Positions 1,746 to 28,778 of a stretch of DNA of 60,336 nt are shown here, piece after piece. A program made the position numbers and the translations under genes. Under the pieces are notes generated by a model that saw only the letters and a list, made by a program, of their open reading frames with translations, ran no database searches and was not told the origin of the DNA. Source of the DNA: an uncultured Candidatus Saccharibacteria bacterium (GTDB lineage: Bacteria > Patescibacteriota > Minisyncoccia > Phycocordibacterales > UBA9973); the NCBI GenBank assembly GCA_964446965.1, contig CAYUQD010000004.1:1-60336 (forward strand), written 5' to 3'. Position 1 is the stretch's first letter; each line of letters starts with the position of its first letter.

Positions 1746-2183
1746 ATGGAACAATTTGATCATAATAAAAAAATAGAGAATGATCTCGTTTCAAGTAAGG
1801 AGAAGGAATATGATCCAATGAAATTGCAACGATTAACTTTGCATTATGCAGAACTTATAGACGAGCAAGGCAAACTTTGGATCGTACAATTTGATCATAA
1901 TACATGGACAGATGAGATAGGAGAAGAGCGAGGCAATGAAATAGATGTACCATCGGAAAAAATTGAATTTATAAATAAAGAACAAGCGTTTCTATATTTG
2001 AAATCAATCGCCTTTAGAAAAGAAATGGAGGAAAATATTGCAATCTCTAAGCAACACCAACTTGATACTACTGTGTATGAACGTGTTATTGAATTAATCG
2101 ATCAGGCTGAAAAAGAATCCGATGAAAATAAAAAGAAACAACTAATACTTGATGCGTTTACACTTAGTGATGAAGAATCATAA
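1746..2183 (+). CDS. Hypothetical acidic protein (AT-rich islet)
   Basis: 145-aa ORF directly after the tRNA pair. No recognisable motif. Confidence 0.45.
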   Translation: MEQFDHNKKIENDLVSSKEKEYDPMKLQRLTLHYAELIDEQGKLWIVQFDHNTWTDEIGEERGNEIDVPSEKIEFINKEQAFLYLKSIAFRKEMEENIAISKQHQLDTTVYERVIELIDQAEKESDENKKKQLILDAFTLSDEES

Positions 2184-2189
2184 AAATAT

Positions 2190-2900: not shown

Positions 2901-2927
2901 TGAATATAATATAGAAAAATTAGATAT

Positions 2928-3140
2928 ATGTTTATAGGAGAAGAATACAAGGAAATAGTCGAGAAAAAATTTGCTGAAGCTATAGCTAATGGTCAAACAG
3001 AAATACTATTGGATGAAAAAACAATAGGTGGTATCAAATTATTTATTGGTACAAAGCCAGCTATTTCAATGGGAACATTTGTTATGGAAGATGGTACAGA
3101 GGTACACGTAGGCGCACAATCATTAGAAACGGTTTCTTAA
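2928..3140 (+). CDS. Hypothetical small protein
   Basis: 70-aa ORF, same strand and composition as the two preceding genes. Confidence 0.35.
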   Translation: MFIGEEYKEIVEKKFAEAIANGQTEILLDEKTIGGIKLFIGTKPAISMGTFVMEDGTEVHVGAQSLETVS

Positions 3141-8660: not shown

Positions 8661-8733
8661 GGGGCTTATGGTGTAACGGTTAACACTGAGGTTTGTGGAA
8701 CCTTCGATTCGGGTTCGATTCCCGATAGGCCCC
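8661..8733 (+). tRNA. tRNA-His (anticodon GTG) with encoded G-1
   Basis: G-1 opposite discriminator C. Acceptor gggctta/taggccc, D arm gtgt..acac, anticodon loop ttgtgga, T arm tcggg-ttcgatt-cccga. Confidence 0.85.
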
Positions 8734-10380
8734 CTTTTCGGGATTTAATATAACGGAGTCAGGTAATTTGGTCGGTCGTATAGATACGTTCCGACCCCGA
8801 CCCCTGACAGGACTTATTATAACTGAGTCATCCGTTGTAATATTTTCTTTCGCAAAGGCTCGATTCTTCAAAGGATCGGGCTTTTGCGTTTCGTTCCAAA
8901 TGAGCGCGCCGGTTGCCTCGAGTCCGAGCACGATCGGGGATTTTGTTGCCTCAACAATGATCTTGTCTTCGGCTTTGAATTGGTCCCAGAAAAGCCCAAG
9001 GTAGAGGCGTTTTAATTCATCAGGTGCTTTCTCGTAGGTCTTGCCGATATTCCGCATCAGGGCGAGTATGTCCTGAACTACGTCCATTTTGAGGTTCTTG
9101 GTCCGGTCCAGTTTGTGTACTTCATCCTCAACACCCTCGATCTGTTCTCGGTAGCGCAACTTGATCTTAGTAAAGGCTACGTCATCAATGATTCCGTTGA
9201 TCAGTTTTTCTTCGGCAATCTCGAGCTTGCGTTCAAAATTAATCTTCGAGGTCATGAACTGTTTCTTCTGGTTGCCGATATCTGATTTCTTTTCCTCATA
9301 GATACTTCGCATTTTGCTTACGACCTTATCGATGAAGTCGTCGGAGAATTGCAGTCCTTTGAATTTTTCCGTGATCTGGTTTTCCAAATCAAATACCTCG
9401 ACATACTTATCGTTGCACTTTATTTGGTCACTGGACCGATTGCAGTGGTAGTACGCCTTATTCTTTAGGGGATGGTACTCGGCGGTATATCGCTGTCCGC
9501 ATTTTCTACAAAACACAAACCCGCGCAGCAGAAAGTTATGCTTGTGTCGTCGGCACGCGTAGCGATTGTTTTCTTCGAGGACTCGTTGGCATTTATCGAA
9601 TAAGTCTTTTGTGATGATTGCCTCATGCTTACCAATGTCGTTCATACCGCGCCACTCCATCCCGCCGTAGTAGAAGGGACACTTGATGGTCCGAAACATT
9701 TTACTCATAGCGACTCGCTTGCCCACGGTACTCACCAATCCTTTCTTGTAGAGCAGATCCCGAATCTCAATCAGGGAATAGTCGCCAGTGCTGTAGAGTT
9801 TGAACAATTCGGCAATGAGTGGAGCTCGGACCGGATCGGTAGTGATGATTCGTTTCTTCTCGTCGTCAGGAGTTCCCGAGTTGAAATATCCCATGGGAGC
9901 TTTTGTCGGCCACCACCCATCCTTGTATTTTTGTTCCATGCTCTTGAGTGTCTTTCGGGAAGTGATCTGTGATTGTAGTTGGTTCACTCCGGCAATGACA
10001 AGGTCCATGAAGTTTCCCTCGGGCGTGTTCTCGAGTCCCGGCTGTGACACTGAAATAAGTTCAACGCCGTGCTTTCTCAAAAGTGCCTTGATGGTGAGGT
10101 GATCGCCGGCATTGCGGGCGAGTCGGTCCGTATCTTGTACAAAGACAGCAGCGATGCTCTTGTCCTCTTGGATGCGAATGAGCATGTCTTGGAGTCCGGG
10201 ACGGTTCATATTCGTCGCACTCTTGCCGGGGTCCTTGTACACACCGTTGTCGGCTAGCTTATAGACTTTCATGTCTTCGATGCCTCGCTCGCAAAGGCGT
10301 AGCTGAGTCTTGAGGGAATGCCGTTCGTCACCGGCTTGTTCGTCGGTGGAAACTCGGCAGTAAATAAGGGCTTTGTTCAT
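8680..10380 (-). CDS. Large serine recombinase (resolvase/invertase N-domain + recombinase domain + zinc ribbon)
   Basis: LIYCRVSTDEQ catalytic-serine motif, DRLARN, zinc-ribbon cysteines CRKCGQRY..YYHC. The last 54 nt run antisense through tRNA-His. Confidence 0.9.
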   Translation of the reverse strand: MNKALIYCRVSTDEQAGDERHSLKTQLRLCERGIEDMKVYKLADNGVYKDPGKSATNMNRPGLQDMLIRIQEDKSIAAVFVQDTDRLARNAGDHLTIKALLRKHGVELISVSQPGLENTPEGNFMDLVIAGVNQLQSQITSRKTLKSMEQKYKDGWWPTKAPMGYFNSGTPDDEKKRIITTDPVRAPLIAELFKLYSTGDYSLIEIRDLLYKKGLVSTVGKRVAMSKMFRTIKCPFYYGGMEWRGMNDIGKHEAIITKDLFDKCQRVLEENNRYACRRHKHNFLLRGFVFCRKCGQRYTAEYHPLKNKAYYHCNRSSDQIKCNDKYVEVFDLENQITEKFKGLQFSDDFIDKVVSKMRSIYEEKKSDIGNQKKQFMTSKINFERKLEIAEEKLINGIIDDVAFTKIKLRYREQIEGVEDEVHKLDRTKNLKMDVVQDILALMRNIGKTYEKAPDELKRLYLGLFWDQFKAEDKIIVEATKSPIVLGLEATGALIWNETQKPDPLKNRAFAKENITTDDSVIISPVRGRGRNVSIRPTKLPDSVILNPEKGAYRESNPNRRFHKPQC

Positions 10381-10465
10381 GGTAATGGTAATTTAGAGCT
10401 GATAATGGGATGCGAACGACACTATGCCAAGAATACGGGATATAGCAATGGTTTGAGCTGATTTT

Positions 10466-10660
10466 TCACTACTGGCTTAACATGGGTTATTTTGGAACGG
10501 TCCTTATAAAATAAGCATTTTTCAAAAAGGATTTTCGTGACTACTGGGTTTAAGAATCACTGTGGCTTAGTCTGGTTTATTTTGAAACGAGCCTTATATT
10601 TATTGATTTTTCGCTCGGGGTTATTCGGGGTTATTTTGATTTCGTCCTTATTTTATAAGG
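10466..10660. repeat. Iteron-like imperfect direct repeats (two ~57-nt copies plus one partial copy)
   Basis: 10466-10523 and 10557-10612 share tcact..tggctta....gg(g/t)ttattttg(g/a)aacg..ccttata...atttttc. A partial third copy is at 10627-10660. Confidence 0.6.
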
Positions 10661-10769
10661 GTTCGAAAAATGAGGGATTTACTTTTTTGTGGATAAAACC
10701 TTCTTTTTTGGCAGGGTGTGTTTGGTTTCTTTTTTTATTTCCTTTCTTTTCTTTCTTACCCCCGCCAAA

Positions 10770-10789
10770 GTGTTCAGTACGCTGAACAC
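10770..10789 (-). terminator. Hairpin at the 3' end of the 157-aa gene
   Basis: Perfect 8-bp stem gtgttcag-tacg-ctgaacac immediately after the stop codon. Confidence 0.45.
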
Positions 10790-10790
10790 C

Positions 10791-11264
10791 CTACAGCGGT
10801 TTCACCCTGAATTTATCAGCTAAATTCTCGATTTCGCCTTGTAGATTTGAGCGGTCTTGCTGTTCATTCTGTCGAATGTTCTGTTCGGTAGGCTGAATAT
10901 CCTGTTCAATACATCGAAATCCCTGTTCAGCTTGGAGAACGTTAGCTTGATATATCCAGAAGTTATTCACACCTGTTTTGTTTTTTGGGAGCGTGGCGAG
11001 ATATCCCTTTTTGACAAGGGATGCCCGGACCCCACTGATCTTGCCAACGGACCACTCTGGTAGGCAATCGCTTTGGATGTCTCGTAGTGAAAAATCCTCA
11101 ACAATGCCGAACCGTTCCTTGTCGCGTTTATCCCACCTTGCATGGATCACATACATGTCAAAAAGCCGATACTCTTGATCGGTCATCGGTTTCTTGTATT
11201 TGACTGCCATGTACCTATACAGCTTCAGGTATCCTACTGGTTTGTTCTTCATGTTCATTTTCAT
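10791..11264 (-). CDS. Hypothetical protein, possibly winged-helix DNA-binding or replication-related
   Basis: 157-aa ORF ending in a Q/E-rich repeat tail (QDIQPTEQNIRQNEQQD). No firm motif. Confidence 0.45.
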   Translation of the reverse strand: MKMNMKNKPVGYLKLYRYMAVKYKKPMTDQEYRLFDMYVIHARWDKRDKERFGIVEDFSLRDIQSDCLPEWSVGKISGVRASLVKKGYLATLPKNKTGVNNFWIYQANVLQAEQGFRCIEQDIQPTEQNIRQNEQQDRSNLQGEIENLADKFRVKPL

Positions 11265-11376
11265 GCTCGATTTGCATCAAGAGGATTTGGGCGAGACGTT
11301 CGACAAAGAAGTCCAAGTCTTTTGGATTCATAGGGACCTGTGCAGGGACCGGATTGTTGTCGAGCGTCTGGTCCAT
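11215..11376 (-). CDS. Possible 53-aa small ORF, translationally coupled
   Basis: ATG sits 2 nt after the TAA of the upstream 83-aa gene. The ORF overlaps the start of the 157-aa gene. Below the ORF-track cutoff and read by hand. Confidence 0.25.
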   Translation of the reverse strand: MDQTLDNNPVPAQVPMNPKDLDFFVERLAQILLMQIEHENEHEEQTSRIPEAV

Positions 11377-11378
11377 GA

Positions 11379-11630
11379 TTAATTCACCTCGTATAGGCGG
11401 GTCTTTAATGCTTTGATCTGGTCAAAGTATGCGCGCGGTTCGACCGACAGCTGACGCTTTTGGAATTCTGAAACGATGTCTTCAAGCTCCGGGGTTCGGG
11501 CGAATATGAATTGCGCCCGCCTCGGGATACTCTTGTCGACATCTTCGAGCGGTACGAACAGCGAGAGGGCTGCCGCGCACGCGAGATCGGAGGTTTGGTA
11601 CATGTGTTGTGTATTCATCGTCATGTTCAT
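11379..11630 (-). CDS. DUF5659-like small protein
   Basis: YQTSDLACAAALS......FIFAR.PELEDIVSEF...QLSVEPRAYFDQIKALKTRLY resembles, from memory, the DUF5659 pattern. Confidence 0.45.
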   Translation of the reverse strand: MNMTMNTQHMYQTSDLACAAALSLFVPLEDVDKSIPRRAQFIFARTPELEDIVSEFQKRQLSVEPRAYFDQIKALKTRLYEVN

Positions 11631-11718
11631 TGATAATCGCCAATAAAAAATAGGCTTGTGTACAGCCTACTTTCGGGGGAGTGATTCAATTTCGAATACT
11701 GCGACTCAAGTGAGTCAC

Positions 11719-12483
11719 TTATTGCTCACGCCAGATGGTATTCATGCGCCAATGAAAAAGTTCGGGAATATCGAGCTGTTCTTTGGCACGCTTGTTTACG
11801 AGGCGCATTGCATCATAAACGCTACGGCTCGAGTCCTTGCTCCAGTCGATCATATCCATGACATCGGTTTCTTTGACGCGTGTACCAAGAGGGACCTCGA
11901 ATAGTTTCTTGCAGAGGAAGAACTGGTTGGTGTTGATGGGTACCTCCGTTTGTCGGCCGTTGAATGAGAAGATGCCGGTTGCGGTATCGAATACAAGTTT
12001 GGTGTCGGAGGTTACATTTTCTTTCACATCGAGCTTTTCGTATACGGTGTTGCGTACTTTCTCGAATGCTTTCCAGTTCGGAATGCGAAAGCTCACAAAA
12101 TTCTTTTTGAATACCTTGGGGTCATTGATTGCATCAAGGTATGCGGAATCGTGATTACCTAGGTAGTCGGGACCGTAGTGGAAATTGATCAGCTCGCCGG
12201 GGCCCGTCGAGATTTTAACAGGGAGGTATAGGTCCTCGATGGTGTTGGTACGGTAGAGGTGTATGAAAAATACGAGGGCGTTCTCATCCATCAGGAGTCT
12301 CGGGAATTCACTTGAAGTCAGAATGATCTCGCCATTTGCCCGATCGAGTACGTTGTACGCCGAAGAAATGCAATCAATGACGGTCTTGATGGTTTCGGTA
12401 GTGACGAAGGTTTTGTTTTCTGGGTACAGGTCCAATAGGGCGGACCAGTCCTTGGTATTCATTTTCATAGTAATTTTGGGCAA
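11719..12483 (-). CDS. Hypothetical protein, possible C-terminal winged-helix
   Basis: 254-aa ORF, first gene of the minus-strand module. No catalytic motif seen. Confidence 0.5.
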   Translation of the reverse strand: MPKITMKMNTKDWSALLDLYPENKTFVTTETIKTVIDCISSAYNVLDRANGEIILTSSEFPRLLMDENALVFFIHLYRTNTIEDLYLPVKISTGPGELINFHYGPDYLGNHDSAYLDAINDPKVFKKNFVSFRIPNWKAFEKVRNTVYEKLDVKENVTSDTKLVFDTATGIFSFNGRQTEVPINTNQFFLCKKLFEVPLGTRVKETDVMDMIDWSKDSSRSVYDAMRLVNKRAKEQLDIPELFHWRMNTIWREQ

Positions 12484-12632
12484 ACGGAGTTGATCACGTT
12501 CAGCTTTAGCGATTATAGCTATTTTGAGTATTTTTAACAGCCCCTACACCTGCTGTGGGGTATTGCTTTCCAAATCGGGATAATATACAATCAGAAAAGA
12601 ATGTAAGGTAAAAACTAACATTCAGTCCAGAT

Positions 12633-13232
12633 ATGGAAAATAAAGGATATTTATCAATTCTCTTGCGATCGCCACAAACCGTCTTTTCATTCAAGGACAT
12701 TATTTCCTTGTGGGGCGAGGAAGTGAAAAGTGCTACAGATAGTTCCTTGCGCGTACGCGTGAATTACTATGTCAAAAGTGGAGAGCTTTACCCGATTCGT
12801 CGTGGGATTTATGCGAAGGATAAGAATTACGATAAATTCGAAGCGGGCAATAAAATCTTTACTCCGTCCTATATCAGCTTTGAAACAGTTCTTAGTCGAT
12901 CAGGAGTATTGATTCGTCGTTTCAATCAGATATTTCTTGCATCGTATCTTTCTCGGGAAATCATTGCCGACAATCAGGTGTACACATACCGAAAGATAAA
13001 AGACTCGGTGCTGAAGACGGAAGGCTCAGGTGTTGAGCGTAAGACAGGGTATTCTATTGCGACACCGGAGAGGGCATTCCTTGATCTCGTGTATCTTTCC
13101 ACGGAATACCATTTTGATAATTTATCAGCATTGGACTGGGAGAAAGTTTTTGAACTCCTACCGATTTTCGAAAGCGAGCAGCTTGAAAAACGAGTACGAA
13201 AATATTATGAGCAATTCCAAAGCTCGGAGTAG
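12633..13232 (+). CDS. AbiEi-family (type IV TA antitoxin-like) transcriptional regulator, with no AbiEii partner
   Basis: VFSFKDI...YVKSGELYPIRRGIYA and PSYISFETVLSRSGVL match AbiEi N- and C-domain signatures. Confidence 0.65.
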   Translation: MENKGYLSILLRSPQTVFSFKDIISLWGEEVKSATDSSLRVRVNYYVKSGELYPIRRGIYAKDKNYDKFEAGNKIFTPSYISFETVLSRSGVLIRRFNQIFLASYLSREIIADNQVYTYRKIKDSVLKTEGSGVERKTGYSIATPERAFLDLVYLSTEYHFDNLSALDWEKVFELLPIFESEQLEKRVRKYYEQFQSSE

Positions 13233-13266
13233 GGAAAAGAATAATGAGAATGAAAATGAACATCAT

Positions 13267-16221
13267 ATGAAAATCACCGACCAACATGCAAAATATTTCG
13301 CCTATGAGCTCACCAAGCGGTGTCCTTCTGATAGCTTGGAGAAACTTTCTTCGACGCTATCGAATGCTCAGGTCGATTTGAATCCGCACCAAATTGAGGC
13401 GGCACTTTTTGCTTTTCGTTCACCGCTTTCAAAAGGAGCGATTCTTGCCGACGAGGTGGGTCTTGGAAAGACGATCGAAGCAGGCTTGGTCCTTTCTCAG
13501 AAATGGGCTGAACGAAAACGGCAGATACTTTTGATCGTCCCATCAAGTTTGCGTAAGCAGTGGAACACTGAGCTTCAGGAAAAATTCTTTTTGCCGTCAT
13601 CCATTCTTGAAACAAAATCATTTAATCAGGCGATCAAAGATGGAAACCTTAATCCATTTGTTCAAGAAGATTCAATCGTCATTTGCTCTTATCAGTTCGC
13701 TCGTTCGAAGTCGCCGTATCTTAAGCAGGTGAAATGGGACCTTGTTGTTATTGATGAAGCGCACCGATTGCGAAATGTGTACAAGACAAGCAATAAGATT
13801 GCGCGTGAAATTAAGGACGCGCTTTCAGACGTTCCGAAAATTCTCCTTACTGCAACTCCACTTCAGAATTCGCTCCTTGAGCTGTACGGTTTGGTTAGCA
13901 TTATTGATGATCATGTCTTTGGTGATCTGAAGAGTTTCAAGGAAAACTACAGCAGGGTTTCTCGAGAGCAAAGCCAGTATGACAGTGAGCTCGGGCTTGT
14001 TGAGCCAAGACAGGAAATGTTTAACGATCTACGCGCACGCCTGAAGCCTGTGTGTATTCGTACGCTCCGAAGCCAGGTTCTCGAATATATTAAATACACC
14101 AAGCGTATTCCTATGACGCAGGATTACACCCCTACGGCGGATGAAGTAGAGCTCTACGAGGGGATGTCTGAGTATCTTCGCAAGCCGAAGCTCTTTGCCT
14201 TGCCGAATAGTCAGCGACAGTTGATCACTTTGATTCTTCGCAAACTGCTCGCATCTTCAACGTTTGCAATCGCGAGCACACTCAGTGGTCTAGTTTCAAA
14301 GCTTACAATCTTGATTGATCAGGCAGAGAAACAGCAGTCGCTCCAAGAGACCGGCATTCCGGACCTTGCTGAAAACTTTGAGTCATTTGATGAAATTTCC
14401 GACGAATGGATTGATGATGAGGAAGAAGAGGTTGAAGAAAAAGACAAGGAAAAGGAAGCGAAATATACCCCCGAGGATATTGAGCTTATGAAAGAAGAAA
14501 AAGGGGAGCTCGAGCATTTCCACGATCTTGCAAAAAGCATTTTCAAAAACTCAAAGGGGGATGCATTGATCACTGCCTTGGAGAATGGGTTCAAAATGAC
14601 CGAAGAGCTTGGTGCAAAAAAGAAAGCTATCATTTTCACTGAATCAACTGTCACGCAAAACTACCTTTTGAAACTTCTATCCGAGCAGGGATACGATGAC
14701 AAGATCGTCTTCTTTAATGGCTCAAACAATGACGAGAAATCGAAGAAGATTTATCAAGCGTGGATGGCGCAGCATAAAGATACCGATAAGGTGACAGGGT
14801 CAAAGACCGCAGACATGCGCGCCGCGCTTGTGGACTACTTCAGAAATGAAGCAGAAATCATGATCGCGACTGAAGCGGCAGCAGAAGGCATCAACCTACA
14901 ATTCTGTTCTCTTCTTATCAACTATGACTTGCCATGGAATCCGCAACGTATTGAGCAGCGCATCGGACGTTGTCATCGTTATGGACAGAAACATGACGTA
15001 GTGGTTATCAACTTTGTGAACAAGACGAATGCGGCAGACCAACGCGTCTACGAATTGCTTGATCAGAAATTTAACCTTTTCAAGGGCGTATTCGGTGTAA
15101 GCGATGAGGTACTTGGGAATATTGAATCTGGTATGGATTTTGAAAAGCGAATCGTAAAGATCTATCAGACGTGCCGAAGTGAAAGTGAAATCAATACTGC
15201 ATTCGATACTCTCCAAGAGGAAATGGAGGAAAGTATTCAGGGTAACTTGCGGGAAACCCGCCAGAAGCTTTTGGAAAACTTTGATGCCGAAGTCCATGAG
15301 AAGTTGAAGATGAACCTGAAGGAAAGTCAGGCCTACTTGGATACCTACGAACGATGGTTGTGGGATGCGACCCGCTACTACCTTGGTGACCATGCGGATT
15401 TTTCAGAACAGGAGTATTCCTTTGTCTTGAAAGACAATCCGTTTGTGAGCGAGGCGATCGATCCGGGTCCTTACAAGATCGGAAAGAATATCGAGGATGC
15501 TCATGTGTATCGTCCGGCGCATCCTTTGGCACAACTGATTTTGTCTGATATCAAAGCTAAGAGTCTTGATGAAGCAGAGGTCACCTTTGATTATGCGACA
15601 AGTTCAAAAGAACAGGGGATTGTTTCAGTCATCGCTCCGCTTGTCGGGAAAGGTGGTGTATTGAAAGTTTCAAACTATACAGTCGATTCATTTGAGGTAG
15701 AGGATATGGTCATCGTTTCGGCGATCGATGACTCAGGAGATGTTATTGATTCTGAGACCGCAAAAAAACTATTTACGATCGCTGCACAATCGGTTGCTCC
15801 GGCTATCGTTTCTGATGATCAAAAAACAAAGCTCGATGAGATTGAGGATGGTTCGGTTGATTTTGTCTCGAGTCGCATTGCCGAGCGTAATGGAGAATTC
15901 TTTGACGATGAAGTTGATAAGCTCGACAAGTGGGCCGACGACATGAAACGAGCGCTTGAGCTTGATCTCAAAAAGCTCGATGTCGACATCAAGATCAACA
16001 AGACAAGTGCAAAGAAAATACTGAACCTTGAAGAAAAGTTGAAAGCACAGCGTGGGATCAAGGATATGGAAAAGAAGCGAAACGAGATGCGAAAGAAATT
16101 GTACGAGGCACAGGACGATGTTGATACTAGAAAGGAAAAACTTATCGGACAAGTAGAATTACAACTCAAGCAAAAGTCGAAGCGCGAGCACCTGTTCACC
16201 ATGAGGTGGAAAGTGGTATAA
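13267..16221 (+). CDS. SNF2-family helicase with a long C-terminal coiled-coil region
   Basis: LADEVGLGKTIEAG (motif I), VIDEAHRLRN (II), LTATPLQNSLLELY (III), QRIGRCHRYGQ (VI). Start chosen at MKITDQHAKYFAYELT; ATG 13207 is also possible. Confidence 0.85.
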   Translation: MKITDQHAKYFAYELTKRCPSDSLEKLSSTLSNAQVDLNPHQIEAALFAFRSPLSKGAILADEVGLGKTIEAGLVLSQKWAERKRQILLIVPSSLRKQWNTELQEKFFLPSSILETKSFNQAIKDGNLNPFVQEDSIVICSYQFARSKSPYLKQVKWDLVVIDEAHRLRNVYKTSNKIAREIKDALSDVPKILLTATPLQNSLLELYGLVSIIDDHVFGDLKSFKENYSRVSREQSQYDSELGLVEPRQEMFNDLRARLKPVCIRTLRSQVLEYIKYTKRIPMTQDYTPTADEVELYEGMSEYLRKPKLFALPNSQRQLITLILRKLLASSTFAIASTLSGLVSKLTILIDQAEKQQSLQETGIPDLAENFESFDEISDEWIDDEEEEVEEKDKEKEAKYTPEDIELMKEEKGELEHFHDLAKSIFKNSKGDALITALENGFKMTEELGAKKKAIIFTESTVTQNYLLKLLSEQGYDDKIVFFNGSNNDEKSKKIYQAWMAQHKDTDKVTGSKTADMRAALVDYFRNEAEIMIATEAAAEGINLQFCSLLINYDLPWNPQRIEQRIGRCHRYGQKHDVVVINFVNKTNAADQRVYELLDQKFNLFKGVFGVSDEVLGNIESGMDFEKRIVKIYQTCRSESEINTAFDTLQEEMEESIQGNLRETRQKLLENFDAEVHEKLKMNLKESQAYLDTYERWLWDATRYYLGDHADFSEQEYSFVLKDNPFVSEAIDPGPYKIGKNIEDAHVYRPAHPLAQLILSDIKAKSLDEAEVTFDYATSSKEQGIVSVIAPLVGKGGVLKVSNYTVDSFEVEDMVIVSAIDDSGDVIDSETAKKLFTIAAQSVAPAIVSDDQKTKLDEIEDGSVDFVSSRIAERNGEFFDDEVDKLDKWADDMKRALELDLKKLDVDIKINKTSAKKILNLEEKLKAQRGIKDMEKKRNEMRKKLYEAQDDVDTRKEKLIGQVELQLKQKSKREHLFTMRWKVV

Positions 16222-16249
16222 ATTATCAATTTTAATTATCATTACATTT

Positions 16250-17296
16250 ATGAACGAATCAAAAGACATAATCCCTCAAGAGTCCGATTTTCTTCTCTAC
16301 ACCACTCCAGAAGGTGGTGTACGTGTGGATGTACTATTCCATGATGAAACTGTTTGGCTAACCCAAAAAAGAATGGCCGAATTGTTCGGTGTTGATGTGC
16401 GAACAATCAATGAACACATCCAAAATATTTACAAAGGTCAAGAGCTTTCTGAGGAGGCAACTATCCGGAATTTCCGGATAGTTCAAAAAGAGGGAAACCG
16501 CGATGTAAATCGGGATATTGAGTTCTATAACCTTGACGTTATCATTTCTGTGGGTTACAGAGTGAACTCTGAAAAGGCTACCCGATTTCGTACATGGGCA
16601 ACACAAACACTCCGCAATTACATCGTCAAGGGATTTGCTATTGATGATGAGCGATTGAAGAACGGCATTCATTTTGGTAAAGATTATTTTGATGAGTTAC
16701 TTGAGAAGATCCGGGAGATTCGTGCGAGCGAACGCCGGTTCTACCAGAAAATCACTGATCTCTATGCGGAGGCGAGCATTGATTATGACAAGGACTCCGA
16801 GATTACTCAAAAATTTTTCAAAACAGTTCAGAATAAATTGCATTGGGCAATAACTGGGCACACTGCAGCTGAATTAGTTGCGGGACGGGCAGATAGTGAT
16901 AAGCCCAAGATGGGACTTTCAACATGGAAGAATGCCCCTAAGGGTAAGGTTATGAAATCAGATGTTTCTGTTGCCAAAAATTATCTTGAAGAAAAAGAAA
17001 TGTCTGAATTGAACCGAGTAGTATCAATGTATTTGGATTATGCTGAAAATCAAGCAAAAAAACAGCGTCCGATGAGTATGGCTGAATGGGTTGAAAAGCT
17101 CGATGCGTTCTTGCGGTTTAACGAATACGAGATTCTCGACAACCCAGGAAAGATTTCACACGAGGTTGCAAAAGAGCTTGCGGAAAAAGAATACGAAAAG
17201 TACCGGGTGATTCAGGATCAAGAGTTCATTTCCGATTTTGACAAGGAAACAAAGAGATATCTTGATGGAGGGGAACCTAGTAGTGAACAAAAATAA
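16250..17296 (+). CDS. RhuM-family protein
   Basis: VWLTQKRMAELFGVDVRTINEHI...YNLDVIISVGYRVNS..ATRFR.WAT is the RhuM signature, a family often embedded in R-M loci. Confidence 0.75.
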   Translation: MNESKDIIPQESDFLLYTTPEGGVRVDVLFHDETVWLTQKRMAELFGVDVRTINEHIQNIYKGQELSEEATIRNFRIVQKEGNRDVNRDIEFYNLDVIISVGYRVNSEKATRFRTWATQTLRNYIVKGFAIDDERLKNGIHFGKDYFDELLEKIREIRASERRFYQKITDLYAEASIDYDKDSEITQKFFKTVQNKLHWAITGHTAAELVAGRADSDKPKMGLSTWKNAPKGKVMKSDVSVAKNYLEEKEMSELNRVVSMYLDYAENQAKKQRPMSMAEWVEKLDAFLRFNEYEILDNPGKISHEVAKELAEKEYEKYRVIQDQEFISDFDKETKRYLDGGEPSSEQK

Positions 17297-17299
17297 TTT

Positions 17300-21716: not shown

Positions 21717-21740
21717 CTTGCCGGTCGCCGAAGAATTAAA

Positions 21741-23252
21741 ATGACAATGAATATGAAATTATCGAAAACAGACTTTTTAATATGTCTCGACTGTGCAAAG
21801 AATGCATGGCTCAAGATACATAAGCCCGATATTTATAAAAAATATCCGTTGTCTTCTTTTGAATTGAACATTATCAATACAGGCAATCAAATTGACGAAC
21901 TCGCACGGGGCTTATTTCCGGATGGAGTGACTGTCGAATCACGCGACGATACGGAATTCACTAATAAATTTCTTTCAAATAAGACACCAGTAATTTATCA
22001 ACCAGTTTTTACTACAGATAAATTCATTACCGCCTCGGATATTTTTGTATGGAATGTAGGCACAGGTGTGTACGATCTCTATGAAGTAAAATCATCTACT
22101 GCCTCTGATGAGGGAGGGGGACGCAAAACTGAAGAATACTTGGTAGATATGGCATTTCAGAAAGTCATACTCAATGACTTGGGTATTCAAATCGGGACCA
22201 CGAGTCTCATTCGTCTAAATAAAGAATACGTGCGAATGGGAGATATTAATCTACAGGAACTTTTCTTTATCGAAAACCTCACTGACCAAGTGAATGAAAA
22301 ACTTGAAGAGATAAAGCAAAAGATGGAAGGGGTTTACGAATATTTTGTGAAAGAAGCTGAACCTGTCGGACACTGTGATTGTATTATGAAAGGTTGGAAT
22401 TCTCACTGCACGACTTCAGGCCACTCTAATTCTGATCTTCCAGAATATCCTGTTCATGCTATATCTCGTATTCATAAGAAAAAACTGGCAGAGTTGGTTG
22501 ATAGTAATATTTTCAGCATTCACGATGTGCCGGACGACTTTGAATTATCTGATAATCAGCGCAGGCAAGTAGATACGGCGCAGTCGGGCAAGGAATATAT
22601 TGATAAAGATGGTATATCAGATTTTTTGCAGACTATGCAGTACCCACTCGCTTTTCTCGATTATGAAACATACCCATCTGCAATTCCCAAGTACAACGGC
22701 TACAGGCCGTATCAGCAAATTCCGTTTCAGTTTTCACTTCATGTGATTGAAGCGCCGAACGGTGAGTCCGTCCATTATGATTTTATTTACACTGATCAAG
22801 TTTGTCCGGACGAACATTTTGCCGAAGCATTAAAAAAGCATTTACCAAAAACAGGTAGTGTTGTTGTCTGGAATCAGAAATTTGAAAAAGGCATCAACGA
22901 ACAGCTAGGGGAACACTTGCCAGGGTATAAGGATTTTATGGAGGAAGTTAATGTCCGTGTCGTTGATTTAATGATTCCATTCTATGGTAAAACAACGATG
23001 TACGATCATCCTGAATTTAAGGGTAGTGCATCGATCAAGTATGTTTTACCCGCTCTTGTCCCGACTTTGTCCTACAAAAAAATGCATATTCAAGAGGGTG
23101 GAACTGCATCAGATACATGGAACCGTATCGTGTCCGGTGAGTATTCAGAAGAAGATAAAAATATGAAGATACAGGCACTCAAGGATTATTGTCATCTTGA
23201 TACTTTGGCGATGGTTGAAATTTGGCGAGTTTTGAACAGCTCATCATCCTAG
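21741..23252 (+). CDS. DUF2779-family protein (N-terminal Cas4/RecB-like nuclease fold, C-terminal exonuclease-like fold)
   Basis: LSKTDFL..LDC.KNAWL, YDLYEVKSST, and FLDYETYPSAIPKYNGYRPYQQIPFQFSLHV match the DUF2779 pattern. Confidence 0.7.
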   Translation: MTMNMKLSKTDFLICLDCAKNAWLKIHKPDIYKKYPLSSFELNIINTGNQIDELARGLFPDGVTVESRDDTEFTNKFLSNKTPVIYQPVFTTDKFITASDIFVWNVGTGVYDLYEVKSSTASDEGGGRKTEEYLVDMAFQKVILNDLGIQIGTTSLIRLNKEYVRMGDINLQELFFIENLTDQVNEKLEEIKQKMEGVYEYFVKEAEPVGHCDCIMKGWNSHCTTSGHSNSDLPEYPVHAISRIHKKKLAELVDSNIFSIHDVPDDFELSDNQRRQVDTAQSGKEYIDKDGISDFLQTMQYPLAFLDYETYPSAIPKYNGYRPYQQIPFQFSLHVIEAPNGESVHYDFIYTDQVCPDEHFAEALKKHLPKTGSVVVWNQKFEKGINEQLGEHLPGYKDFMEEVNVRVVDLMIPFYGKTTMYDHPEFKGSASIKYVLPALVPTLSYKKMHIQEGGTASDTWNRIVSGEYSEEDKNMKIQALKDYCHLDTLAMVEIWRVLNSSSS

Positions 23253-23257
23253 GTTGG

Positions 23258-23572
23258 TTATATTTTGAAATCCCTTATTTCTTTTTCCGCTTTCTCAATT
23301 TCTTTCAGTACCCGCAGATAGAGCGCTTTAGTCTTTTTGCTTTCAGGGTTCCGCTCCATGAATGCCACATCATCATCGTCGATAAATGTGGCGAGGGATG
23401 TGTATGCGTCCGCGAGGTGTCGGATGCGCTCTTTGATTCCGGCTCGTAGTTTTTCTTTGGAAGAAGGAAGAGACGACAGTGCGTTCATCGGTCTGTGTCT
23501 GTTGTGAGGGATATGCGTGTGTGCGGCGGTTTTGAGGACCGCGTCGATGTCATCTTCCACGGCATCGAACAC
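23258..23572 (-). CDS. Hypothetical protein
   Basis: 104-aa ORF convergent with the DUF2779 gene. Shares an upstream gaagtctag element with the next small gene. Confidence 0.4.
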   Translation of the reverse strand: MFDAVEDDIDAVLKTAAHTHIPHNRHRPMNALSSLPSSKEKLRAGIKERIRHLADAYTSLATFIDDDDVAFMERNPESKKTKALYLRVLKEIEKAEKEIRDFKI

Positions 23573-23725
23573 AGTACCAAGACAACGGGCGAAGTCTAGG
23601 GATACTGTGAATTTTTAGTAAAAGCAGGCATAATTCACGGCAAAACTGCTTTTTCGCGTGAATTTGCGAACGCGGCGTTGAAAGCTCCCGAAGGCTATTA
23701 CTTCCCGAACAGTCCGAGAAGATCG

Positions 23726-23758
23726 CACACAGGGGCGAACACGCGCGAATTACGCCAA
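23726..23758. repeat. Copy A of a ~33-nt direct repeat (partner at 28099-28131)
   Basis: cacacaggggcgaacacgcgcgaattacgccaa versus cacacggggcaaaatacgcgcgaattatgccaa. Confidence 0.7.
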
Positions 23759-23769
23759 GACGGTGGAGC

Positions 23770-23976
23770 TTATTGCTTGAGGAAGTCGAGCTCGTTATTT
23801 TCTATGACCTTGGTCAGCTTTTGGTAGGCAACCGTCATTATTCGCATTCGTGCTTTTACATCGGCAATGATTTCTTTCTTCGTTTCGCCCTTTATGGCAT
23901 AGGACCCAAGAACGCGCCTCATGAACAGCCACTCGAACTCATCCTTTGCTTTGGTAACATCGATGTCTTTTTTCAT
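23770..23976 (-). CDS. Hypothetical small protein
   Basis: 68-aa ORF. Its upstream element gaagtctagtgatcattgaaaa is paralogous to the one upstream of the 104-aa ORF. Confidence 0.4.
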   Translation of the reverse strand: MKKDIDVTKAKDEFEWLFMRRVLGSYAIKGETKKEIIADVKARMRIMTVAYQKLTKVIENNELDFLKQ

Positions 23977-24048
23977 ACGAACCGCACACTACCGAGAAGG
24001 TCCGATGAAGTCTAGTGATCATTGAAAAACTCTTCTCAAAAATATAAA

Positions 24049-25352
24049 TTTGCGAATGGGTACCGACCGTGGTTGTTGTGCGTGCGCCTCGGCACATAAC
24101 ACATCATGAAAAACACACTATCGTACGCCGATTACCAAAAGAAAATGAAAGAGCTCAAGACTCCGGAGGATATCGCCGCATTCGCGCAGGAGCTCATCGC
24201 TCCCATGCTCGGCAATATCCAGAATGTGTCGGCACTAGAAGCGGTTGAGGAAGAAATCGAGGAACCGTTCGTTCCCGAACAGCCGAAAGCGGTTGCACCC
24301 GTTAAAAAGTACAACCGCAGGAATCCGTATCAGTTGGAAGTTGTCAGTCCGTGGCACGATGTCGCGGGAAACGACACCGAGGCTATGGTCATTGATCTTT
24401 ATGCAAAGGGTCTGACCACTCGAGACATTGTAAACCATCTCAAACGCAGTCATGGTATTGAAATGTCTCAACCGAACGTATCCACGATCACCGACAAAGT
24501 ATTTCCGTTGGTGAAAGAATGGCAGTCGCGTGCGCTCTCGTCATGCTATCCGATCATGTATCTCGATGGCATGCACTTCAAGGTTCGCGAGGCGGGGAAG
24601 ATCGCATCCAAGGTTGCGTACATCGCCCTTGGCATAAACAACTACGGACAAAAAGAGGTCCTTGGCATTTGGGTTTCAGAAACTGAAGGAGCGAAGTTCT
24701 GGATGCATGTCTTGAACGATCTGAAGAACCGCGGCGTGGATGACATTCTCATTGCATGCGTTGATGGGCTGAAAGGATTTCCCGAAGCAATCAAAGCAAT
24801 GTATCCGCACACTGATGTTCAAGTCTGTGTCGTCCATCAGATCAGACACACGGTCATGTTCATCGCATCCAAAGACAAGGACAAGTTCTGCGACGAGCTA
24901 AAAACGATCTACACCGCGCCGTCCGAGGAAGCGGGATTGGATGCACTGAAGACAATGCAGGAAAATTGGCCGATGTATCAGGTGTACCTCAAAAGTTGGG
25001 AAACGCGTTGGGCGGACCTCGCGCCGTTCTTTAGCTACCCGCAAGCAGTCCGAAAGACGGTCTACACGACAAATGCGATCGAAAATCTGAACCGTCAGTT
25101 CCGAAAGGTTACCAAGACGACACAGATATTCCCGCACGACGATGCGCTCTTGAAACTCCTATGGCTCGCGCAAGCCGATATCACCCAGAACTGGCAGCTT
25201 GCTGTCCGCAACTGGGGAGAGGTGATGGCGCAGCTTAGTATTATGTTCCCGGACCGCGTTCAGTTTTAGCAGTTAAAATATCTCTGAAGAAATTATAATC
25301 AATTAATAAAGTCCGAGCGTTACGCACTTCGATTGGTCGGTACTCGGCAAAG
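24049..25352 (+). mobile_element. IS256-family insertion sequence (~1.3 kb)
   Basis: Imperfect terminal inverted repeats: tttgcgaatgggtaccgacc..gtgcgt..cctcggcac (left) against the reverse complement of gtccgagcgttacgcac..ggtcggtactcggcaaag (right). Single transposase ORF. No clear target-site duplication. Confidence 0.6.
24106..25269 (+). CDS. IS256-family (mutator-type) transposase
   Basis: YPIMYLDGMHFKVRE, ALGIN..G.KEVLGIW, ACVDGLKGFPEAI...P...VQVCVVHQIRH, YTTNAIENLNRQFRK. Confidence 0.9.
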   Translation: MKNTLSYADYQKKMKELKTPEDIAAFAQELIAPMLGNIQNVSALEAVEEEIEEPFVPEQPKAVAPVKKYNRRNPYQLEVVSPWHDVAGNDTEAMVIDLYAKGLTTRDIVNHLKRSHGIEMSQPNVSTITDKVFPLVKEWQSRALSSCYPIMYLDGMHFKVREAGKIASKVAYIALGINNYGQKEVLGIWVSETEGAKFWMHVLNDLKNRGVDDILIACVDGLKGFPEAIKAMYPHTDVQVCVVHQIRHTVMFIASKDKDKFCDELKTIYTAPSEEAGLDALKTMQENWPMYQVYLKSWETRWADLAPFFSYPQAVRKTVYTTNAIENLNRQFRKVTKTTQIFPHDDALLKLLWLAQADITQNWQLAVRNWGEVMAQLSIMFPDRVQF

Positions 25353-25426
25353 GTCGCGGCATGGTCCGTGGCCTTTTGCGTATAAAAGCAGGGGACCCGT
25401 GGTTTCCAAGGCTATATAGCTATATA

Positions 25427-25455
25427 TTGACTTTTAAGGTGAATAGTGCTATAAT
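25427..25455 (+). promoter_or_regulatory. Sigma70-like promoter upstream of the DGR target gene
   Basis: TTGACT, 17-nt spacer, TATAAT (25427-25432 and 25450-25455). Confidence 0.5.
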
Positions 25456-25534
25456 ATACCCAGAATACAGTACACCTCTCGCTGTCTTCAATATACCGAG
25501 TAGAGGCAACTTTCTTTCACAAAAAACAAATAAA

Positions 25535-26173
25535 ATGAGAACAAAAACTCTCGAGCAGAACACGGCGCAAGATTTCGCTGGACTGCAAATCGACCAGTTG
25601 AGCAAATTGCGCAACGGCAACATGACCTTTCAACAGGTGAAATGGTTTAACAACCTTTCGTTTGAGCAAAGGGAAGCACTGATGGGCAAGCAACCTGAAA
25701 AGGCACTTATCCTGAAATTGATTTCCGAAGCACACGAAATCATCATTGAAACCTGTGACGGTTCCCAAACTATTGCAACTGCCAAAGAAACCTTTAAATC
25801 AGGAATCGATGGTGACTTCAAAAACTGGGGTACCAACAAGGCCGGTGCATCAACTGAAAAAACATCAGTACAGGTTCACGAGATGGTAAAGGATGCCACG
25901 TTCGCACAAATGTTCGGCTCCCTCGGGACCGATCTGGACAAACTGTGTCTGACACAACACCAGATAAAAACATTTTGCGAGGTTCACAAAGAGTGGCTCC
26001 GCAAAGACGGATACGCAACATTCTTCCTGTTTAAGGTTGATGAGCAATTCTTCGTTGCCTACGTGCTCGTGTACTCTGGCGGCTTGCGCGTCAGCGTGTA
26101 CCGGTTCTGGAACGACCTCGTTTGGAATGCCGAGTACTCCCATCGTATGGTGGTTCCGCAACTGACCGCTTAG
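25535..26173 (+). CDS. DGR variable (target) protein, 212 aa, no obvious signal peptide, VR at the C-terminus
   Basis: ATG 25535 lies downstream of the promoter. The last ~43 codons carry the VR. The tracked 25361 start would span the promoter and the IS end. Confidence 0.7.
26045..26165 (+). repeat. DGR variable repeat (VR)
   Basis: 121-nt match to 26486-26606. Differences fall on TR adenines, apart from one G/T site. Confidence 0.85.
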
Positions 26174-26202
26174 AACCTTGTTCTACTGACACTTATTTTC
26201 TT

Positions 26203-26247
26203 AATCCCTTTGATTCTTCCGAATTGAAGGGATTTTTTTATTTTTAT
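26203..26247 (+). terminator. Intrinsic terminator after the DGR target gene
   Basis: aatccctt-(16 nt)-aagggatt followed by tttttttattttt. Confidence 0.65.
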
Positions 26248-26485
26248 ATAATGTCCGGGCAGTGGTGCGGGTATGTCGCGGTTATGGCTGCGGGATCACG
26301 ATTGCTCAAAATCATCATCGAGAATTTTGCCGGCTACGGCTATCAAAAGAGTGAGGGTTGTTTTGGAACAAAAAACTTTTCAGTTGGTGTGATGCGCTTG
26401 CGGACTTCTAGGTCCCGAATAAAATACAGCACGATCCCTGATGGAAACATGCTTGGATCGGCAGTGGTAGAGATGGTGCATCACA

Positions 26486-26606
26486 CAATTCTTCGTTGCC
26501 AACGTGAACGTGAACTCTGACGGCTTGAACGTCAACGTGAACCGGTTCGAGAACGACAACGTTTGGAATGCCGAGTACTCCCATCGTATGGTGGTTCCGA
26601 AAATGA
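26486..26606 (+). repeat. DGR template repeat (TR)
   Basis: Non-coding copy with 8 in-register AAC codons: gcc AAC gtg AAC gtg AAC tct GAC ggc ttg AAC gtc AAC gtg AAC cgg ttc GAG AAC gac AAC. Confidence 0.85.
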
Positions 26607-26628
26607 GGGTTTTCTCCTCTCGGATTTA

Positions 26629-26970
26629 TTATCTGGGAGGAGTTTTCTTTTCAAGCCCCTTTCTCCATCCGCCGAGCATTTTTCCTATCTCATCCAACTG
26701 TTCGGAGAGCGTTGCGTACTTGTCATTCGGCAGGCATTTGTTTTCCCATGCCAATTGCAAAAAGAATTTCACCCCGTCGAGCTTTGATATTGAAATGGTG
26801 ATGCGGTTTATCTTCTGATCACCCGAAAGGTATAGGGATACAAAAATGTTTTCTAACAATTCTAAAAAGTAGCTATCAATCTTGCCACCAAGGTTGTGAC
26901 GATAGGTCTTTGGAAAATCCGCCAGTAATTTAAACCAGACTGAATACGATTCTTTCGCTTTTACGAGCAC
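26629..26970 (-). CDS. avd: Avd-like four-helix-bundle protein (23S rRNA IVS protein family), antisense to TR and RT
   Basis: KESYSVWFKLLADFPKTYRHNLGGKIDSYFLELLENI....KLDGVKFFLQLAWENKCL...Y..L.EQLDEIGKMLGGW. GTG 26970 preferred as start; ATG 27108 would overlap the RT start. Confidence 0.6.
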   Translation of the reverse strand: MLVKAKESYSVWFKLLADFPKTYRHNLGGKIDSYFLELLENIFVSLYLSGDQKINRITISISKLDGVKFFLQLAWENKCLPNDKYATLSEQLDEIGKMLGGWRKGLEKKTPPR

Positions 26971-26981
26971 TGTAGGTGTTC

Positions 26982-26990
26982 GGGGGGGGG
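26982..26990. repeat. Homopolymeric G9 (C9 on the avd strand)
   Basis: cggggggggg read directly. It lies between the avd GTG start and the RT start, or inside avd if ATG 27108 is used. Confidence 0.9.
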
Positions 26991-27019
26991 TAAATTTATA
27001 GGCATAGTAATTGGATAAA

Positions 27020-28042
27020 ATGTATATGAAAAAATTCGGAAACTCGTATAACAATATCATAACGACCTCAAATTTGCTCCGGGCGTGGGAAGAGTTTTTG
27101 GCAGGCAAAAAGAACCGGGCTGATGTCGCTGCATTTCAGTATCGACTCATGAACAATATCTGCGATCTGCATCAGGAACTTGCCGATAAAACATACAGGC
27201 ACGGTGCGTACCACGCATTCAACATCTCCGATCCAAAGCCGAGGAATATTCACAAGGCTACGGTCCGGGACCGATTACTGCATCATTTGCTCCACGCTGA
27301 AATGTATCCGTACTTCGACAAGAAGTTTATTTACGATTCGTATTCATGCCGTATCAATAAGGGTACGCACAAATCCATGGATCGTTTCAGGGATTTCGGC
27401 CGCATCGTTTCCAAGAATGACACTCGCGCATGTTGGGTCCTGAAGTGCGACATCAGGAAGTTCTTCGCCAATATCGACCATGCCATTCTGAAGGAGATAC
27501 TTGCGCGGCACATCGAGGATACTGACCTCTTGCAACTGCTCGGGCATATCATTGATAGCTTTTCGACGCAGGGAAGGACTGACGTTGGGTTGCCACTAGG
27601 GAACCTCACAAGTCAGTTACTGGTAAACGTCTACATGAACGAATTTGATCATTTCATGAAGCGGACGCTCAAGGTTACCCACTATATCCGTTACGCCGAT
27701 GACTTTGCCATTCTCCACCAGGACCCGAGCTATCTAGCGAGCCTTATTCCGCAAATCTCCGATTTCCTTGAGACCAAGCTGAAACTGTCATTGCACCCTG
27801 ACAAGGTATTCATCAAAACCCTCGCCTCGGGCGTTGATTTCTTGGGATGGGTGCATTTCCCGCATCATCGAGTTTTGCGTACTGCAACGAAACGGCGAAT
27901 GTTTGCCAACCCAGGCATTTACGCTGCCGATGAGGCTGTCGTGAATTCATACCGAGGGCTACTGTCGCATGGCGATGGATACAAGTTGGTCCGGACGATC
28001 GAGGACATTTCGGCGAACGTGCCATCGCCTGAAATCGGCTGA
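27020..28042 (+). CDS. DGR reverse transcriptase
   Basis: GLPLGNLTSQLLVNVYMNEFDHFMK (DGR-type motif 4 ending in SQ), YIRYADDF (YxDD), RNIHKATVRDRLLHH. No maturase or endonuclease domain. Confidence 0.9.
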   Translation: MYMKKFGNSYNNIITTSNLLRAWEEFLAGKKNRADVAAFQYRLMNNICDLHQELADKTYRHGAYHAFNISDPKPRNIHKATVRDRLLHHLLHAEMYPYFDKKFIYDSYSCRINKGTHKSMDRFRDFGRIVSKNDTRACWVLKCDIRKFFANIDHAILKEILARHIEDTDLLQLLGHIIDSFSTQGRTDVGLPLGNLTSQLLVNVYMNEFDHFMKRTLKVTHYIRYADDFAILHQDPSYLASLIPQISDFLETKLKLSLHPDKVFIKTLASGVDFLGWVHFPHHRVLRTATKRRMFANPGIYAADEAVVNSYRGLLSHGDGYKLVRTIEDISANVPSPEIG

Positions 28043-28098
28043 ACGAGGGGGTTGAAAATGTGAAGGGGGACAAAGTCTCGAATGCGGTTTGAAGAGCT

Positions 28099-28131
28099 CA
28101 CACGGGGCAAAATACGCGCGAATTATGCCAA
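28099..28131. repeat. Copy B of the ~33-nt direct repeat
   Basis: See copy A at 23726-23758. About 27 of 33 positions are identical by hand alignment. Confidence 0.7.
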
Positions 28132-28277
28132 TTGTAATTCCTTCTTCTTGTCGGCAATCAGCCTTAGTTTCTCTCGTAAAATTTGCATATACCCCTCGTC
28201 GAGAAGTATAGTTAGAAGGTCATTCTGACTCTGCCCCAATAATCCATAAGAGAGTATTTGTTTGCTACAATTCTCTC

Positions 28278-28673
28278 ATGTCATCATTTGAATCATTCCC
28301 AGGCAAAGTTGAAAAAGCACAAGTAATCGAAGCTTATAAAAAACTAATTGAAAAAGGTATAACCAACCCCTACGATTACAAAGAAACCGATACGGATGCA
28401 AAAATAGCGAATGATTTGTGTACAAAGTATTTCGAACAATTGGACCAAAGCGCAGAAGTTGATCCAACATTGAAACATCGAGTGAATTTCGAGAAAACAT
28501 TCTTTTACCTTGACGCCGGATTTACTGACCCAGATTATGTAGAAGAAGTGTTAGTGGAATGGGTTCCAGAAGATCTCGCAGAAGCTGAGGAATCAGATCC
28601 GGCACTTGCACAAGAGATGAAAGAAAAAATTGCTCATTACAAAGCAATACTACTCCCTGATCTCAAGGAATAA
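28278..28673 (+). CDS. Hypothetical acidic protein
   Basis: 131-aa ORF, AT-richer than the following genes. May still belong to the island. Confidence 0.45.
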   Translation: MSSFESFPGKVEKAQVIEAYKKLIEKGITNPYDYKETDTDAKIANDLCTKYFEQLDQSAEVDPTLKHRVNFEKTFFYLDAGFTDPDYVEEVLVEWVPEDLAEAEESDPALAQEMKEKIAHYKAILLPDLKE

Positions 28674-28778
28674 AATTTGAAAATTCTCCCAAAAGTGCTA
28701 TAACATCCTGACAAGGACGTGTTCTATACTCCAAGGCAAGTATGACGCTAGTCATGAACTCGAAGACCTTGTAGGTAT

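Follow-up and report, generated by a model that had tools for sequence, protein, structure and literature searches.

A defence island at tRNA-His whose large serine recombinase gene contains the attachment site and appears to exchange its C-terminal tail on integration

Serine integrases are textbook avoiders of tRNA targets, and the direction of their reaction is set by a separate protein. Among described systems, the islands inserted at ssrA in Dehalococcoides come closest to the locus reported here, as their serine recombinase gene dsiB always overlaps attL, lacks a stop codon of its own and is perhaps complete only on the circular form (McMurdie et al. 2011, PMC3146451). In the same work, completion of dsiB was also guessed to occur when the gene lies downstream of a neighbouring island (McMurdie et al. 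2011, PMC3146451). Another precedent is the IntP/IntX pair of phage Mx8; according to a review (PMC6070905, citing Tojo 1996 and Magrini 1999), its integrase coding sequence contains attP, and integration gives the gene a new 3' end, leaving the enzyme active with a changed specificity. Here, we describe a 60,336-nt stretch of DNA (the window; contig CAYUQD010000004.1 of assembly GCA_964446965.1) from an uncultured Candidatus Saccharibacteria bacterium, in which the gene for a large serine recombinase (LSR) reads into a tRNA-His gene. The genome measures 643 kb in 19 contigs and is 96% complete, the window being its contig C4; in the following, W denotes the element in the window, G relative genomes, L contigs carrying relatives and P proteins of the recombinase family. 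The locus is likely to be an integrative, probably mobilisable defence island that was inserted by its LSR at the end of tRNA-His, with the attachment (att) site inside the LSR gene, a C-terminal tail swapped by integration and two junctions available for recombination.

The LSR gene is the sole long open reading frame (ORF) adjoining tRNA-His. A first-pass annotation of the window had reported a 566-residue LSR abutting the tRNA gene and taking its C-terminal tail from it, and this description holds: 55 nt of the ORF, including the stop codon in the D-arm region, lie within the tRNA gene. Inside the island the gene has no stop codon of its own, as the antisense strand of the tRNA alone provides its last 17 codons and the stop, and a lysine codon straddles the junction (8734-8736). 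The protein has the make-up of an LSR, consisting of a resolvase-type catalytic domain (Resolvase, PF00239, E 1.5e-25, residues 4-155), a recombinase domain (PF07508) and a zinc ribbon (Zn_ribbon_recom, PF13408) with a coiled coil. Its matches in the PDB are the TP901-1 integrase and catalytic domains of the resolvase family, and the serine nucleophile (Ser11) is nearly invariant in an alignment of 64 sequences. In the AlphaFold2 model of P0071, an unsplit relative, two helices (345-392 and 398-441) lie between the strands of the zinc ribbon. Non-synonymous and synonymous differences per site (pN/pS) from the LSR of G024 amount to 0.046/0.64 over the body of the protein, which points to strong purifying selection. 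Two further LSR genes are found in the same genome (G000 C5:29167-30153 and C1:2525-3547); they are 27-34% identical and located away from tRNAs.

The island spans 8735-28237 (19,503 bp) and is bounded by C-runs, one at the tRNA-His end and one at its right end (Table 1). Empty sites are present in G002, G003, G014 and G017, all of which carry a tRNA-His allele identical to that of the window and no close LSR; their homology to the window ends exactly at 8734, where they continue into unrelated A/T-rich DNA, placing the crossover in the last bases of the tRNA gene, in line with what had been supposed. In addition, G015 and G016 have a different tRNA-His allele without an island, the next core gene following within ~25 bp, and overall a close LSR is encoded in only 3 of the 51 genomes of the genus. 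One of these, G024, displays the same left junction with an LSR 84.6% identical in nucleotides and 92% in amino acids, next to a core gene that is ~67% identical. On a second contig of G024 (C62), similarity to the window ends after the C-run equivalent to 28234-28237 and a different core gene follows. Because the junctions in G024, G010 and L051 all stop at the equivalent of 28237, this position is taken as the island end, and the right boundary, earlier left somewhere in 28043-28778, is thereby refined together with the left one at 8735. The first-pass annotation had found no duplicated tRNA 3' segment at the right side, and indeed attL and attR have only a G plus C-run core of 4-5 nt in common. 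The number of Cs (attB five, attP four, attL five, attR four) adds up to the same total before and after integration, which fits an exchange at the end of the C-run; a crossover at a CC dinucleotide would be compatible with the shared core, the exact crossover not being readable from sequence. The acceptor stem of tRNA-His is kept in both the integrated and the empty state. As the B' flanks are unrelated, the enzyme may recognise mainly the half-site provided by the tRNA. The GC content of the island is 44.3% against 46.2% for the genome. Taken together, the island is real and well-bounded, and the initial reading of the locus is supported in structure.

Two other placements of the boundaries were rejected. 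An island extending to ~30300 was considered since in G015 and G016 tRNA-His stands directly before the homologue of 30303, but the ends in G024, G010 and L051 all correspond to 28237, and the core gene at 28779-30284, of the ABC-F type, is found elsewhere in relatives. Likewise, 8735-8803 does not represent chromosomal flank, as relatives with the identical tRNA allele diverge at 8735. The segment 28238-30300, consisting of a 131-aa ORF without homologues in the relatives and the ABC-F-type ATPase gene, separates the island from the gene that directly follows tRNA-His in G015 and G016. As homologues of the ABC-F gene lie elsewhere in relatives, the region downstream of tRNA-His is a rearrangement hot spot. 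A terminator and promoter scan of the island right end found nothing.

At the far end of the island lies a piece of coding sequence that would complete the LSR. It is open from 28126 to 28236 with a stop at 28123-28125, runs on the LSR strand and has no upstream ORF in the chromosome. Joining 28237 to 8735 in silico creates a single ORF of 586 aa, in which the piece is fused in frame to the LSR; the prediction that the integrated and excised forms encode different C-termini is thus borne out at the level of reading frames, the excised form being longer and carrying a conserved alternative tail. Integration consequently replaces a conserved, helix-prone tail of 37 residues by 17 unrelated residues of tRNA antisense. 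Comparing W with G024, 26 codons of the piece are identical, eight differ synonymously and four conservatively, and the stop is shared. All 37 codons and the same stop are present in six copies (W, G024 and L050-L053), with pS (0.21-0.98) exceeding pN (0.03-0.22) in all 15 pairs. Even over the distal 13 codons, W and G024 show 8.5 synonymous versus 5.5 non-synonymous differences, synonymous change being saturated. The piece thus behaves as conserved coding sequence. It is also found with a much more distant enzyme, as the LSR of G008, 57% identical and located at its own tRNA-His, has a homologous piece 11 kb away (tblastn E 4e-7), which lies on the strand of the LSR and keeps its phase across the C-run.

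The joined arrangement also occurs naturally, its junction being contiguous in metagenome contigs. In the full-length relatives P0080/P0094 and P0071, the homologous tail is contiguous and forms the protein's own C-terminus. In L050, L051, L052, L053 and G010, the piece is contiguous and in one frame with a further 23 codons that lie at the opposite end of W, and proteins P0075, P0077, P0078 and P0079 read through such naturally fused junctions. In L054, a 4.9-kb neighbour situated between an unsplit LSR and tRNA-His completes this LSR with its right end; the arrangement is a tandem or co-integrate, with the tail contributed by the neighbour. As an observation on this contig (10001-16632), the 567-aa LSR is followed by 4.9 kb encoding a DEAD/ResIII helicase, DUF347 and others, and then by tRNA-His. 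Just 3' of the displaced piece, a non-coding block of ~60-70 nt is kept in eight elements (W, L038, L043, L050-L053 and L028). After the stop of the piece, W and G024 differ by an indel of ~22 nt before entering this common block. Neither an Rfam match nor a consensus fold was obtained for it, and in the circle form it may possibly serve as a 3' site for regulation or protein binding.

The 23 codons mentioned above constitute a 69-bp module, which is located at the left end in W and G024 and at the right end in G010 and L051, where it is 96% identical; between W and G024 it differs at only 4 nt. The P' arms at 8809-8830 and 8740-8761 are direct repeats, and the two P arms are also alike. This is most simply read as a circle bearing two attP-type junctions, J1 and J2, at a distance of 69 bp, of which J1 would have been used by W and G024 and J2 by G010, L051 and L057. 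L057 shows an intact J2 junction at tRNA-His. Within the 90%-identity cluster that holds the window protein (P0001), there are J1 isoforms of 566, 558, 559 and 598 aa and J2 isoforms of 535 and 543 aa. Since both junctions are used in one closely related element population, the LSR appears to exist in three isoforms, namely 586 aa on the circle, 566 aa after use of J1 and ~543 aa after use of J2. A single junction is present in relatives such as G008 and P0004, suggesting that the module is a duplication of att arms, and it could be speculated that it is the last remnant of a tandem partner. The anatomy, frames, conservation and use of both junctions can be taken as shown.

Reading into the target recurs across the recombinase family, here taken as 73 proteins, the query and 72 homologues found with its C-terminal half, the closest of which come from sources named Candidatus Parcubacteria, Paceibacterota or Minisyncoccia. 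All 72 homologues are open up to a conserved crossover motif, a hydrophobic stretch followed by R/W-G. Beyond the crossover, at least 47 of the 73 proteins end in an antisense T-arm signature resembling (D/E)SNP, ~19 break off at the tRNA boundary and different tails are seen in 7. Among the long tails (n=24), the anticodon position read backwards gives a His codon in 20 and a Pro codon in 4; as the tRNA read backwards keeps the codon complementary to its anticodon in phase, the tail names the target. From this we infer tRNA-His as the main target of the clade and tRNA-Pro as an occasional one, the former having been directly checked in W, G024, G008, G010, L043, L054 and L057. Such recurrence across the family argues that tRNA read-through is not due to chance. 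The first-pass annotation had named the same tail in unrelated contexts as evidence that would speak against its reading; the tail recurs in relatives only because these are likewise inserted in tRNA genes. It had also proposed looking for an empty attB in related genomes, whose absence would have spoken against it; such a site is present with the same allele in four of them and with another allele in two, as described above, so that both checks favour the initial reading.

Table 1 Features of the island and its target site in the window.
Feature	Coordinates	Strand	Basis or remark
tRNA-His (GTG)	8662-8734	+	ARAGORN; integration target, intact after insertion
LSR, chromosomal isoform, 566 aa	8680-10380	-	ORF and domain search
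attL crossover core, C-run (J1, left copy)	8730-8734		Homology of relatives ends at 8734
69-bp (23-codon) in-frame module (J1 P' arm and J2 P arm)	8735-8803	-	In G010 and L051, found at the opposite element end
Intact internal attP-type junction J2 (C-run 8801-8804)	8778-8830		P' arm repeat; used by relatives
Conserved small ORF of integration module	10791-11264	-	DNA common to G008, L054 and L057 elements; no family match
DUF5659 protein	11379-11630	-	E 3.8e-09; same family beside LSR in L043, L054 and L057
Conserved ORF of integration module, 254 aa	11719-12483	-	Shared with relatives
AbiEi-like antitoxin/regulator	12633-13232	+	E 2.9e-56
SNF2 helicase, DrmD-like	13030-16221	+	E 4.6e-214
RhuM / PDC-S05 protein	16250-17296	+	Family match
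Type III restriction-modification methyltransferase (Mod)	17300-19072	+	PADLOC MTase_III, E 8.3e-159
Type III restriction enzyme (Res)	19023-21716	+	PADLOC REase_III, E 8.6e-195
DUF2779 protein	21741-23252	+	Homologue also cargo in L054
IS256/Mutator-family transposase	24106-25269	+	Single copy in assembly
Target gene of diversity-generating retroelement (DGR), variable repeat (VR) 26045-26165	25361-26173	+	Comparison of template repeat (TR) and VR
DGR TR	26486-26606	+	121-nt repeat
DGR reverse transcriptase (PF00078)	27011-28042	+	Profile match
Conserved non-coding block just 3' of displaced piece	28060-28125	-	Sequence conservation
Displaced LSR C-terminal coding piece, 37 codons and stop	28123-28236	-	In-frame join, conservation
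attR crossover core, C-run (J1, right copy), island right end	28234-28237		Junctions in G024:C62, G010 and L051

Between its two ends the island carries the cargo that had been described as defence genes plus a DGR, and both parts were recovered, the former as AbiEi, DrmD-like, RhuM/PDC-S05 and type III Mod/Res proteins (Table 1). The Mod and Res genes are adjacent, as required for a type III restriction-modification system. No recognisable AbiEii partner accompanies the AbiEi-like gene. The ORF listed for the SNF2 helicase overlaps the AbiEi gene by 200 nt, so the helicase probably starts downstream of 13030; only this DrmD-like helicase scores for DISARM, as DrmA, DrmB and DrmC were not found among the ORFs scanned. 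The DGR is genuine, with 14 of the 15 mismatches between TR and VR at TR adenines and VR at the 3' end of the target gene; the accessory protein Avd was confirmed by no profile. Upstream of the LSR, three small ORFs travel with it in G008, L043, L054 and L057, while the other cargo varies. A search of the small conserved ORFs against PHROGs and Pfam matched only DUF5659, and no candidate for a directionality factor was identified, the conserved small ORFs at 10791-12483 being without an informative family match. A decayed relative of the island is located at tRNA-His in G010 (L029, G010:C8, 7559-9321), with ~210 bp of the LSR left and the reverse transcriptase deleted; the DGR target gene and the TR region are kept at 86% identity. 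Outside the island, low-GC stretches are present at window positions 2001-3000 and 46001-49000 (GC 0.36-0.38 vs 0.46 for the genome).

A mechanism can be proposed from this anatomy. On the excised circle, the gene would cross the joined ends and encode the 586-aa enzyme with its conserved 37-residue tail. After integration, the tail piece is left 19.5 kb away and the gene ends with 17 tRNA-antisense residues. As J1 and J2 can each recombine with tRNA-His, two chromosomal isoforms of 566 and ~543 aa arise. Only the circle, or a position behind a tandem neighbour, would then yield the full-length enzyme, and it may be this form that selection has tuned for integration, while the tail-swapped chromosomal enzyme may have altered activity or directionality, as in Mx8 IntP/IntX. 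In functional terms, the tail swap may act as a sensor of the integration state, as first suggested. A bolder version, which we put forward tentatively and regard as rather unlikely, is that the swap constitutes a built-in switch of directionality or commitment, whereby the full-length enzyme integrates, the tail-swapped enzyme is locked or biased towards excision, a separate directionality factor is replaced or supplemented, and J1 and J2 add a third isoform and a second docking option.

Several observations weigh against the proposed tail-swapping island. Over its first 25 codons, the piece hardly varies in DNA sequence between W and G024, so part of the conservation reflects constraint on the att site rather than on the protein. 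The element of P0003 (L043), seen on 21 contigs, is without most of the displaced piece, and a search of L057 within 10 kb of its LSR recovered none. In addition, the AlphaFold2 model of P0071 folds confidently up to about residue 493, beyond which the tail is a free helix with per-residue confidence (pLDDT) of 48-61 and no docking site, and thus gives no indication of a structural role for the tail. Alternatively, the enzyme may be complete before the crossover and attP may simply overlap the 3' end of its gene, the read-through being incidental and neither the tail nor the far piece functional. A coding role of antisense ssrA was indeed thought unlikely for Dehalococcoides (McMurdie et al. 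2011, PMC3146451), the linker beyond the fold is variable and of low confidence, and the P0003 element persists without the piece. Incidental read-through is improbable all the same, as it does not account for a far piece that keeps its 37 codons and stop in six elements with pS well above pN and that is conserved in G008 at 57% LSR identity, nor for the finding that 0 of 72 homologues have a stop before the crossover despite the highly variable linker. On L043 itself (360-430), the piece is almost wholly deleted, and the end of the element directly adjoins a palindrome, which lies upstream of the gene for a CsoR-type repressor.

The conservation of the piece might also be explained by a stand-alone small gene of ~38-90 aa, for example a regulator, that is not part of the recombinase and has its start created at the right junction or further out; in W and G024 the attR junction itself creates a TTG codon, and gene callers place ORFs over the piece in L050-L053 (P0075, P0077-P0079). 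We regard this as very improbable, considering that each context has its own start and its own in-frame sequence upstream with no ribosome-binding motif evident, that the 23-codon module contains no stop and shares its phase with the LSR as well as with the piece, and that the homologous tail is the true C-terminus of the full-length LSRs P0080 and P0071. A further alternative concerns mobility, in that the island may be a fixed fossil no longer moved by the recombinase and its junction anatomy a relic. The assembly of this genome contains neither a circle junction nor an empty-site contig for this copy, whose excision is therefore putative; moreover, an IS256-family transposase has settled inside the island, and relatives have decayed by loss of the LSR and reverse transcriptase (G010) or of the piece (L043). 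Against this stand an intact LSR ORF under strong purifying selection, the integrity of both att junctions and the displaced piece, and the 92%-identical LSR of G024 at the same site between core flanks of ~67% identity, which together leave a fossil with a low probability. The tail-swapping, integrative island thus remains the preferred explanation.

For this genome, the island amounts to ~3% of 643 kb and brings restriction, abortive-infection-type and DGR cargo. More broadly, a whole clade of recombinases in small-genome bacteria of the Parcubacteria/Paceibacterota type appears to target the last bases of tRNA-His and sometimes tRNA-Pro, with an enzyme C-terminus that differs between the free and the integrated element. 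Should the swap affect activity, these recombinases would set the direction of their reaction with no need for another gene, which would be of use for integrase engineering. Annotated C-termini of family proteins are partly tRNA antisense, and island finders expecting tyrosine integrases and repeats of tRNA fragments will miss such islands.

Compared with the described systems, the locus shares with DsiB of the Dehalococcoides ssrA islands an LSR at attL that is stopless and reads antisense into its target at the 3' end of the tDNA. The layout guessed for dsiB, in which the tail comes from a neighbouring island (PMC3146451), is seen here in L054. DsiB differs in its target, as tmRNA and a direct repeat of ssrA are involved there, whereas tRNA-His and a core of only 4-5 nt are involved here. 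In addition, DsiB is accompanied by a small serine recombinase, DsiA, and by a ParB/Mom module, and no conserved displaced tail has been demonstrated for it; a second resolvase-domain ORF, ParB and Mom were all absent among the island ORFs scanned. Mx8, the tested analogue among tyrosine recombinases, is similar in that attP lies within the integrase ORF and integration changes the C-terminus (PMC6070905), yet it is a phage with a tyrosine recombinase, one attP and two attB, whereas a serine recombinase, a defence island, two attP-type junctions and one attB are found here. Thus, the LSR works like the integrases with a gene-spanning attP but is not a member of that group, being a serine and not a tyrosine recombinase. 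The integrases of TP901-1, phiC31, Bxb1 and A118/LI have the same domain order, and their short att sites with a tiny core are compatible with the arrangement here, but their attP lies outside the gene, their targets are protein-coding and they use a separate directionality factor. In SSV1-type viruses (Fuselloviridae), attP also resides within int, which is split up on insertion into a tRNA gene; unlike here, the enzyme is an archaeal tyrosine recombinase, both gene parts are large and the repeat matching the tRNA is long. The integration-dependent immunity of mycobacteriophages BPs and Brujita follows the same logic, with attP inside a gene and integration changing the C-terminus and behaviour of its product, although the split gene encodes a repressor, the integrase is a tyrosine recombinase and the lost tail is a degradation tag. 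In the literature, no description was found of tRNA-targeting split-gene serine integrases or of this clade, the nearest being the 2011 remark on DsiB. What appears new is the 69-bp in-frame module, by which the element is supplied with two attP-type junctions.

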